DNA from: Escherichia coli
Lineage (GTDB): Bacteria > Pseudomonadota > Gammaproteobacteria > Enterobacterales > Enterobacteriaceae
Length of the DNA stretch: 1,956 nt
NCBI RefSeq assembly: GCF_003334765.1
Contig: NZ_QOWT01000076.1
Direction: 5' to 3' (one strand)
The notes beneath the pieces are model-generated. The model did not search any database. It had not been told where the DNA came from and saw nothing but the letters and a program-made list of their open reading frames with translations. Below are positions 1-1,956 of the stretch, in pieces (within the stretch, counting starts at the first letter, position 1; every line of letters begins with the position of its first letter). The position numbers and the translations under genes were made by a program.

Positions 1-533
1 TTCTGGCAACCCATCGCATCAGTTGTGATGATTTTTCCTTTAATATCCAGCATGTTAAGAAGTTCAGGGATAGCTGTGATCTCATTGGATTTCTTATCCG
101 TCTTGATCTGCCCGATGACCAGACTGTGCATTGTTGAGAACGCACTAATGACATGAATCGCTCCCCTGCGGCGACTCTTGTCATAAGAGTGCCGGAGCGT
201 TTTTCCATCAATTGCAATGACGTCTTTATCATTTGATGAATGGCAATCACGCATCCAGTTAATAAAGCACTCGTGAAATTTTGCAGGACTGATACAGGAT
301 ACAACTCTGGCAATAGTATCGTGAACAGGAATACCATTTTCAAAATCACCATATTGCTTCAAGAAATCGAGATGTGTTTCCCCGAAATCCTCTATATCTT
401 CCCAACTTTCTGCACCAGAAATAACGGCAAAAATAGTCAATAGTAGGATGCCTGACAATTTATGCTCTACTTTCCAGGCTTATCTGTAATCGGGAATAAT
501 AGAAATATGTTCCATCAATTTTTTAAGTTCCAT
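1..533 (-). pseudogene. ISAs1-family (H-repeat-associated type) transposase, N-terminal ~177 codons, 3'-partial (runs off the window start); interrupted by an in-frame TAA at codon 18
   Basis: Hand translation of the minus strand from the ATG at 531-533 gives MELKKLMEHISIIPDYR, then TAA (plus 480-482), then in the same frame [159 protein letters not shown], open to position 3. The pattern IxDxR...K.EHxLxxILLL..xAVISGA.xWxxIExFG ... GIPxHDTxxRV is the DDE_Tnp_1-associated N-terminal domain of ISAs1-family transposases. No minus-strand stop occurs in this frame between 479 and 1. Confidence 0.85.
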
Positions 534-758: not shown

Positions 759-1328
759 TTATTTCTCTTCACTACGAATTAGTTCATGCTGTATCTTTAT
801 TAAACATTCGTAAGACTCATTTTTGTTCGGGAGATGTGCTGTCATTCGAGCATAAGTTGGTTTCTCATCTTTAAAATATTTTACCATGATTGAATTATCA
901 AGGACTGCCAACAACTGAACTGGATCACTGCTCTTTTTTTGATAGATACCCGCTCTTATATAACTTCTAAACCGATCGCCGAGAAACGCCGTTTTTTCTG
1001 CTGTATTTATCAACTCCTGCAACGTTCCTTTGATGGCATGATTTTCATTAAGGCGTAGTGACCCGACGCGAATTAAGAGTCTCGCCCCGCTTGGTGTGAA
1101 TTTATTATTTTTACATGTACCCAGTTCTGTTTGCCAATAATACTCACCGATGTCCTCATTCTGATACCATCTCCACATGGCTTTATTATTTAAGACAGGA
1201 AACGCGGAAAAAATAGTACCCTTAGCGAAAATAGTAAAACAATCATGATCTTTAGCTTGTATTTCGCAATCAGCTATAACACCAAAACTAACAAATATCA
1301 TCAGCAAAAAGAACAAAACTCTTTTCAT
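759..1328 (-). CDS. Putative cognate immunity protein for the Rhs CT toxin; Sec-exported periplasmic protein (189 aa precursor)
   Basis: Track ORF 759..1328 (-). Its ATG (1326-1328) overlaps the toxin TGA (1325-1327) as ATGA. N-terminus [19 protein letters not shown]|DCEIQ has a basic n-region, a hydrophobic h-region and a V-I-A signal peptidase I site. An SD-like AGAGGAA lies 6 nt upstream. The gene is AT-rich (hand-sampled stretches about 28-43% GC). Position immediately 3' of a polymorphic toxin CT is the canonical immunity position. Confidence 0.75.
1272..1328 (-). other. Predicted Sec signal peptide of the immunity protein (19 aa, cleavage after VIA)
   Basis: [19 protein letters not shown] followed by DCEIQ. 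There is no lipobox: the residue before Cys is Asp, not G/A/S, so signal peptidase II processing is unlikely. Confidence 0.65.
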
Positions 1329-1956
1329 TTTCTTATTCCTCTCGATGTTCTCTGTTTCATCTTAGCTAAAATTTCACCCAAATCATCTATCCCTGCTGTT
1401 GCTGGCCCATCGGGTTTATTAATGTCTGGGAATAAATAGGGTTCTGCACAAGTATATCCTGGTGGTAATTGAGTTGTTGGCCAATTTGTCTGTGGCAGGT
1501 AATCACTTGCTGTCTTTGTATCCATCCCTGGATACTGGGAATCATCCTGTGGCGTACAAGTCAGATTTGGTTTTACCCACTTCCTGCAATACAGTGTGTA
1601 GTCGTAAGGGCTTAATGCTCTGAAGAATGTTTTGAAAACATTAGGCGCACTACTGGCCTGGTCAATAGGATATGGCAGTCTTAATTGTTTCGCTATGTCC
1701 GGCAATTTACTTGGATCGGGCGTAGGCGGTTTGTTGGGTCTCGCTCCATATCCGCCATTATTTAAGTGTCCATATTTTGATGCCAGTCCCATTGAATCTA
1801 TATACTGAACCGGATTCAGCGGATACTGATAAAAATTCCATCCCCCCTTCAGCCCAATCGGATCCTGAGTGATATACCTCCCCTGCAGCGGGTCATAATA
1901 GCGGTGGCGGTTGTAATACAGGCCGGACTCCTCATCATACTGCTGCCCCGGCAGGC
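1325..1956 (-). CDS. Rhs family (YD-repeat) protein, C-terminal fragment: end of the conserved core plus variable CT toxin domain; 5'-partial, continues beyond the window end
   Basis: The minus-strand frame of the 155-aa track ORF stays open from its Met (1790-1792) up to position 1954 with no stop. Hand translation of 1793-1954 gives [54 protein letters not shown], followed by [14 protein letters not shown]... This matches the hallmark end of the Rhs repeat-associated core ([12 protein letters not shown]...QDPIGL.GG.N.YQY..NP....D..GL). The Met at 1792 is therefore internal, not the true start. Stop TGA at 1325-1327. Confidence 0.9.
1328..1783 (-). other. Variable Rhs C-terminal toxin domain (152 aa) of unknown activity
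   Basis: Sequence after the GL junction: [152 protein letters not shown]. It sits exactly where Rhs CT toxins sit and is followed by a coupled small ORF. I see no HExxH, HxxxH or other canonical nuclease/peptidase motif, and the single His precedes all three Cys. Confidence 0.7.
1335..1341 (-). promoter_or_regulatory. Ribosome-binding site for the immunity gene
   Basis: Minus-strand AGAGGAA (plus-strand ttcctct at 1335-1341), 6 nt upstream of the ATG at 1328, located inside the 3' end of the toxin coding sequence. Confidence 0.5.
1784..1813 (-). other. Rhs core/CT junction motif (PxxxxDPxGL-type; here [10 protein letters not shown]), the predicted autoproteolytic demarcation site
   Basis: Ten codons, P(1811-1813) V Q Y I D S M G L(1784-1786), with the same spacing as the PxxxxDPxGL motif that ends Rhs cores, except that Ser replaces the Pro after Asp. 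Confidence 0.75.
1814..1956 (-). other. Conserved Rhs core terminal region (partial), relatively GC-rich
   Basis: Encodes ...[43 protein letters not shown]. Hand-counted GC for 1793-1956 is about 52% (86/164), clearly higher than the downstream CT and immunity sequence. Confidence 0.85.

Follow-up and report, generated by a model that had tools for sequence, protein, structure and literature searches.

A candidate exported, disulfide-bonded immunity protein encoded behind an orphan Rhs toxin tip in Escherichia coli

The ybfO-ybfC locus

The stretch of DNA analysed here, hereafter the window, comprises 1,956 nucleotides of an Escherichia coli genome (RefSeq assembly GCF_003334765.1, contig NZ_QOWT01000076.1), and many E. 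coli chromosomes, including that of K-12 MG1655, match it at 100% identity. It holds the end of an Rhs gene, the gene ybfC and a degenerate transposase gene. All of the features are on the minus strand and are listed here by descending coordinates, with the basis of the assignment in brackets.

1784..1956, minus strand: end of the conserved Rhs core (TIGR03696, RHS repeat-associated core), which runs off the window (NCBIfam)
1328..1783, minus strand: Rhs C-terminal toxin domain of the ybfO type, 152 aa following a DSMGL cleavage-type motif (translation, alignment A4)
1336..1343, minus strand: Shine-Dalgarno-like GAGAGGAA preceding ybfC, within the final codons of the Rhs fragment (sequence reading)
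1325..1328, minus strand: ATGA, the start codon of ybfC over the stop codon of the Rhs fragment, a 4-base overlap (ORF list, translation)
759..1328, minus strand: ybfC open reading frame, 189 codons plus stop, encoding a candidate RhsI-type immunity protein (ORF list, annotation, dN/dS)
1272..1328, minus strand: predicted signal peptide, codons 1-19 (rule-based call and family comparison)
762..1271, minus strand: predicted mature YbfC domain, residues 20-189, beta-rich with two short helices
1266..1268, minus strand: Cys21 codon, predicted disulfide partner Cys72 (co-presence/absence)
1239..1241, minus strand: Cys30 codon, predicted disulfide partner Cys175 (44 of 45 family members)
1113..1115, minus strand: Cys72 codon, predicted disulfide partner Cys21 (co-presence/absence)
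804..806, minus strand: Cys175 codon, predicted disulfide partner Cys30 (45 of 45 family members)
761..759, minus strand: ybfC stop codon
758..534: AT-rich spacer
1..533, minus strand: ISAs1-family (H-repeat) transposase pseudogene, of which the window holds the 5' part; codon 18 is an in-frame stop (translation, annotation)

According to the annotation of matching genomes, the Rhs piece is an orphan fragment, truncated at its N-terminus and lying 3' of rhsC-ybfB, in the position of ybfO; its residues 1-57 are matched by the NCBIfam models NF041261 (RHS_core) and TIGR03696. The core is closed by a motif (window 1784-1801, minus strand) whose usual form is DPxGL; the window and Citrobacter share the form DSMGL, Phytobacter has DALGL, Kluyvera has DPKGL and distant relatives have DPLGL. 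At the other end of the window, the pseudogene at 1-533 corresponds to the ybfQ/ybfL/ybfD region of K-12-type genomes. The G+C content falls stepwise from 52.6% at the end of the Rhs core to 43.1% in the toxin tip, 36.7% in ybfC and 28.4% in the spacer, and a step-down of this kind, here over 534-1956, is typical of horizontally exchanged tip/immunity cassettes.

ybfC is a real gene under purifying selection, since it is annotated in thousands of E. coli genomes and its dN/dS lies between 0.10 and 0.27 in comparisons with E. coli, Citrobacter, Kluyvera, Pseudocitrobacter, Phytobacter and a metagenomic relative. The ATGA overlap with the Rhs fragment is the signature of a predicted translational coupling. 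Toxin tip and ybfC together form a module; 3615 of 5426 complete E. coli genomes carry it, with one copy in each. A sigma-70-like site, CTGGCA-18-AATAAT, is located at the junction of Rhs core and tip (1786..1757, minus strand) and could act as a ybfC promoter independent of the truncated Rhs; in a promoter scan of the window the count of sigma-70-like sites was not above the shuffled expectation. Literature searches found no functional study of ybfC, ybfO or b0704, and in the literature searched ybfC figures in two places only, as a 'putative secreted protein' that, together with rhsC, was differentially expressed between HUS and non-HUS groups of STEC (PMC6033998), and in a listing of operons as '(ybfOC)' (PMC3946193).

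Leader, cysteines and predicted location of YbfC

A word-indexed search with YbfC returned only enterobacterial homologues, 58-99% identical and devoid of Pfam domains, while a profile search of 1.84 billion cluster representatives recovered 74 YbfC-family proteins, mostly of 180-205 aa and matching end to end. Against Pfam, NCBIfam and PDB sequences, both the single sequence and a 45-sequence profile produced noise only. The AF2 model of YbfC is of moderate confidence (pLDDT 73.9); when it was compared with AFDB50 using Foldseek, the matches were confined to uncharacterised members of the YbfC family (from Salmonella, Delftia, Paracidovorax, Planctomycetes and Lentisphaera), and no resemblance to a known immunity protein was found. 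Two records in which part of YbfC is joined to a WbuC-type cupin domain (P0039 and P0048; PF19480) are probably gene-call or assembly chimeras. Likewise, two short contigs that are 98-100% identical to the E. coli module, yet sit in MAGs named Flavobacterium psychrophilum and Candidatus Nanosynbacter (L008, L009), most likely represent binning contamination.

YbfC opens with MKR (net charge +2), followed by a hydrophobic core of 15 residues whose best 15-residue Kyte-Doolittle window is 2.99, and a signal peptidase I site is predicted after Ala19 (VIA-DC), with Gly16 at -4, Val17 at -3, Ala19 at -1 and Asp at +1. The call is rule-based, resting on the classical -3/-1 rule and on the behaviour of the family, and the same site had been proposed in a preliminary description of this DNA. 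The sequence elements expected of a Sec/signal peptidase I substrate are found, namely a charged n-region, an h-region, small residues at -3 and -1 and a helix breaker. Among full-length family sequences, 58 of 59 carry a charged and hydrophobic leader with a -3/-1 end, the exception being an N-terminally truncated record; across these 59 members the leader varies in sequence and keeps its character. Conservation starts at residue 21. Ala19 is at least 90% conserved among close homologues, and the AF2 model has a pLDDT below 50 over residues 1-18.

Downstream of the leader, YbfC has no second hydrophobic segment, the highest 19-residue Kyte-Doolittle mean outside the leader being 1.03 against the customary transmembrane threshold of 1.6; the preliminary description, which had seen no further long hydrophobic segment, is borne out. 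The same holds across the family: once the first 30 residues are set aside, no 19-residue mean exceeds 1.54 in any of the 59 full-length members, and a later membrane-type segment is absent from all of them.

The four cysteines that had been reported at precursor positions 21, 30, 72 and 175 are present, and all four are invariant in 21 homologues of 59-92% identity; their occurrence goes beyond chance. In an alignment of 45 diverse family members, Cys175 occurs in every sequence and Cys30 in all but one, whereas Cys21 and Cys72 occur together in 27 sequences, are both missing from 18 and are never found singly (Fisher p = 6e-13). Since kinship of the sequences inflates this p-value, the Cys21/Cys72 trait was placed on a neighbour-joining tree, a rough one built without the Cys21 and Cys72 columns, on which it switches independently at least six times. 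Because the cysteines behave as two pairs across the family, we infer, as the simplest reading, two disulfides, with 21-72 as an optional staple and 30-175 as the core bond. An even number of conserved mature cysteines acting as pairs is what a disulfide-bonded protein would display, and the putative pairs fit with an oxidising compartment; hence, the earlier suggestion that these residues serve disulfide stabilisation gains support from their pairing in 45 family members.

The position of Cys21 directly behind the leader raises the question of lipid attachment. YbfC reads V-I-A-D-C at the place of a lipobox, and the Asp at -1 of Cys21 precludes a match to the strict pattern, [LVI][ASTVI][GAS]C; the preliminary description, which had found no lipobox, was right. 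The feature varies within the family. Among close homologues, residue 20 varies between D, N, T, Y, A and S, and about 4 of 21 have a strict lipobox at the first cysteine (ISAC, LASC, IAAC), with Ala or Ser at -1. P0105 and P0143 also match, and many distant relatives have A-x-A straight before their first cysteine. In P0143, a distant relative, a textbook lipobox, LLSAC, precedes the domain; this relative possesses neither Cys21 nor Cys72, and its lipobox cysteine is a different and more N-terminal residue.

Two arrangements that would leave YbfC attached to a membrane, with its domain facing the periplasm, were weighed against the predicted soluble form. Were YbfC a lipoprotein, Cys21 would be diacylglyceryl-modified after cleavage by signal peptidase II and the domain would be tethered. 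Its placement as the first cysteine behind the leader is suggestive of this, as are the lipoboxes of the four close homologues and of P0143 and the A-x-A-C of the distant relatives. However, the Asp at -1, like the Asn, Thr or Tyr of close homologues, fits neither the strict nor the PROSITE-type lipobox. Furthermore, Cys21 is gained and lost strictly with Cys72, as expected of a disulfide partner and not of a lipid site, and a thioether-modified cysteine cannot be a disulfide partner, which argues that Cys21 is not the attachment site; the P0143 lipobox belongs to another residue, in a protein without Cys21 and Cys72. We regard a lipid-anchored YbfC as very improbable. The second arrangement, in which the leader stays uncleaved and YbfC is a signal-anchored (type II) inner-membrane protein, is only slightly less improbable; it is favoured by the predictive nature of the cleavage site and by the membrane anchoring of some periplasm-facing immunity proteins, such as that for colicin M. 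Against a signal anchor stand a hydrophobic core of just 15 residues that runs into Gly at -4 and a Val-x-Ala site, the -3/-1 site with which the leader closes in nearly every family member, and a leader whose sequence is unconserved up to the point, residue 21, from which conservation begins. YbfC therefore looks like an exported protein that is predicted to be cleaved by signal peptidase I and to be soluble, rather than a lipoprotein or a membrane protein. The statement that it is not a lipoprotein is valid for the YbfC of the window and not necessarily for all members of its family, which may be periplasm-facing throughout with a minority tethered.

Pairing of YbfC with one family of Rhs tips

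The four-base overlap of toxin and ybfC recurs in Citrobacter, Kluyvera, Phytobacter and metagenomic loci, amounting to at least 10 loci in other genera. In Citrobacter portucalensis and Kluyvera, a full-length Rhs protein (1381 aa and 1384 aa respectively) with a homologous tip is encoded directly upstream of a YbfC homologue; the C-terminal domains are 70-72% identical to the tip of the window and the YbfC homologues behind them are 62-67% identical to YbfC. At a second Citrobacter-type locus, a YbfC homologue accompanies an orphan Rhs fragment beside VgrG genes. The association extends to remote relatives: P0081, 31% identical to YbfC, lies behind an Rhs fragment in a VgrG/DUF2169/PAAR island, with a tip 39% identical to that of the window, and P0127, about 20% identical to YbfC, lies behind an Rhs fragment with a tip 33% identical. 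Percentage identities of toxin and YbfC fall in parallel (70/67, 72/62, 39/31, 33/20).

Within E. coli, strains F690 (L026; rhsC locus, kdp/ybfA) and 746 (L025; nik/yibA) carry the module as the primary tip of a 1399-aa Rhs, again with the four-base overlap, and genes for an NTF2-fold immunity protein and a DUF6258 protein are found downstream of the module (locus 7001-11766).

YbfC-family genes also occur without a toxin (L010-L012, L018, L021-L024), and one stand-alone copy is situated downstream of an unrelated Rhs-immunity pair. In one such locus (L022, 1-12579), the distant relative P0114 resides, without Rhs, in an island of small genes between transposases, comprising SUFU, HEPN_AbiU2, DUF2283 and acetyltransferase genes, which looks like a poly-immunity or defence island. 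In Citrobacter youngae (L014) and Phytobacter ursingii (L015), only the last 25-70 residues of the tip are in frame upstream of position 6001 and the rest is scrambled, such that the toxin has apparently decayed and an intact YbfC homologue has been retained.

The immunity genes of polymorphic toxins have a standard signature in genomes, which consists of coupling to a single toxin family and divergence in parallel with it, together with orphan modules and copies that lack a toxin. As expected of an RhsI protein, YbfC is encoded directly 3' of a variable tip, co-varies with it and is kept with orphan tips or alone. An immunity role is therefore supported by the conserved, coupled pairing with one Rhs tip family and by the stand-alone copies, and this genomic context supports the assignment of YbfC as a putative RhsI-type immunity protein. 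The preliminary description had already called YbfC an immunity candidate, which fits both the overlap-coupled pairing across distant taxa and the copies that stand alone.

The alternative is that YbfC has no immunity function and is either an unrelated secreted passenger of the rhs element or an accessory factor of the toxin. The immunity role is drawn from gene context, database searches found no likeness to any described immunity family, and the name given to ybfC in the literature is 'putative secreted protein' (PMC6033998), all of which leave room for a passenger. Yet its position and four-base overlap behind one tip family are kept down to relatives of about 20-30% identity, and stand-alone copies exist, one of them in the island with the SUFU gene; both patterns are typical of immunity genes. 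An accessory function is further at odds with known T6SS adaptor and chaperone genes, which lie upstream of the effector and have cytoplasmic products. On balance, we think it unlikely that YbfC is a passenger or an accessory factor, and the immunity reading is retained below.

The toxin tip, known systems and a proposed mechanism

The tip family, as represented by 17 diverse sequences in alignment A4, is found exclusively on Rhs. Its conserved core, SPYDY..C..W...C...D..PG....D..P....P.G..C, spans about 100 residues, and behind it come a terminal helix and a basic tail. Three cysteines (C66, C76, C112) and four aspartates are invariant; no conserved His or Glu was found among the 17 tips. Given the odd number of invariant cysteines, one may be free, whether for catalysis or for a mixed disulfide. 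The basic C-terminal tail is conserved as R-x-x-G-x-R-K/R, then stop. The tip of the window is hydrophilic and basic (GRAVY -0.82, pI 9.1, 14% Pro), with a maximum 19-residue hydropathy of 0.14, and a membrane-type segment is absent from every member of the tip family. Sequence and profile searches gave no Pfam, NCBIfam or PDB match for the tip. A colicin M-like motif was considered and dropped, there being a loose 'YDY' resemblance only, with the following basic residues not conserved.

The preliminary description had gone on to argue that a soluble periplasmic inhibitor points away from a pore-forming toxin and towards a peptidoglycan-degrading effector. The former part stands: a soluble exported immunity protein together with a hydrophilic tip without any hydrophobic segment makes a classical membrane-inserting pore-former unlikely. 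The latter part does not, the tip having neither a Pfam or PDB match nor a conserved His or Glu. The lack of conserved His and Glu argues against Cys-His amidases (papain/NlpC-P60-like) and His-based metallopeptidases. Moreover, phospholipases, lipid II-directed toxins and other envelope toxins likewise have known immunity proteins in the periplasm, hence the step from soluble periplasmic immunity to peptidoglycan degradation is not supported. The predicted location of YbfC points to the compartment in which the toxin would act, the envelope, and not to its chemistry.

The working model for YbfC is provided by the periplasmic T6SS immunity proteins (Tsi1/Tai, Tsi3, Rap and Tldi), which have a Sec leader, reside in the periplasm, as is predicted for YbfC, and are small single-domain binders, often disulfide-bonded. 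Among bacteriocin systems, the immunity proteins for colicin M (Cmi) and pesticin (Pim) face the periplasm and counter a soluble, enzyme-type envelope toxin, and Cmi is membrane-anchored and has a disulfide. They resemble YbfC in facing the periplasm against a soluble toxin with an envelope target, as predicted for YbfC, although homology to YbfC was not detected for either, Cmi is anchored where YbfC is predicted to be soluble, and the ybfO-type tip lacks the catalytic motif (DxYDx5HR-type) of colicin M.

In genomic arrangement, the closest counterparts are the RhsI proteins of Dickeya, Salmonella, Serratia and E. coli Rhs systems (Poole et al. 2011, PMC3150448; Jackson et al. 2009, PMC2935791). 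Like ybfC, their small genes lie directly 3' of the variable tip with a coupled start, vary with the tip, are kept with displaced orphan tips and are also found alone. The Rhs toxins examined to date nearly always work in the cytoplasm, however; characterised RhsI proteins are mostly cytoplasmic and act against nucleases, deaminases and ADP-ribosyltransferases, whereas YbfC is predicted to be exported and disulfide-bonded; neither they nor other described families have any sequence or Pfam relationship to YbfC. A second comparison is with Tse5-CT of Pseudomonas aeruginosa, a hydrophobic, membrane-inserting Rhs pore-former whose immunity protein, Tsi5, is a membrane protein (PMC10684867). Tse5-CT is Rhs-delivered and envelope-acting, as is predicted for the ybfO-type tip, but the latter is hydrophilic and neither it nor mature YbfC has membrane segments. 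YbfC is thus a putative RhsI-type protein by function, akin to periplasmic T6SS immunity proteins in its predicted location, and outside the described families by sequence and fold. A soluble periplasmic immunity protein paired with an Rhs tip that acts on the envelope is uncommon, though precedented, given that a 2024 survey predicts the action of Rhs and PAAR-Rhs effectors to be almost exclusively intracellular (bioRxiv 10.1101/2024.02.26.582050).

We propose, with a probability of about 0.7, that YbfC is the cognate RhsI-type immunity protein, exported, disulfide-bonded and soluble in the periplasm, against the ybfO-type Rhs toxin encoded directly upstream. Translation of ybfC would begin at a start codon coupled to the toxin stop. 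Sec would export the product, signal peptidase I would remove its leader by a cut behind Ala19, and in the periplasm the protein would be oxidised, presumably by DsbA, to form Cys21-Cys72 and Cys30-Cys175. The mature protein, of about 19.7 kDa and beta-rich, would stay in solution, where it would bind the toxin domain one-to-one and block toxin arriving from the type VI secretion system of a sibling or competitor. Since YbfC is predicted to act in the periplasm, the target of the toxin should be reachable from there. The strain of the window has the toxin as a displaced orphan that has lost its N-terminal part, and ybfC would for this reason function mainly as stand-alone protection against strains that bear the same tip on a full-length Rhs.

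To the preliminary description, the present analysis adds disulfide covariation and cross-genus synteny for YbfC. A bolder reading is that the ybfO-type tip founds a new class of periplasm-acting Rhs toxin, with a small, cysteine-containing core of about 100 residues, a fold absent from the PDB and a chemistry or binding mode unlike those of known amidase, muramidase, lipase and pore-forming effectors, and that YbfC founds a new immunity family of beta-sandwich proteins stapled by disulfides, extending from Enterobacteriaceae to Burkholderiales, Planctomycetes and Lentisphaerae; we advance this tentatively, considering it somewhat more doubtful than not. If this reading is true, a function would be assigned to two uncharacterised K-12 y-genes, ybfC and ybfO, in about two thirds of E. 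coli genomes. A predicted exported and disulfide-bonded immunity protein would mark the ybfO-type tip as an uncommon, envelope-acting Rhs toxin and, as it has no recognisable fold or catalytic motif, the tip may hit a new target in the envelope.
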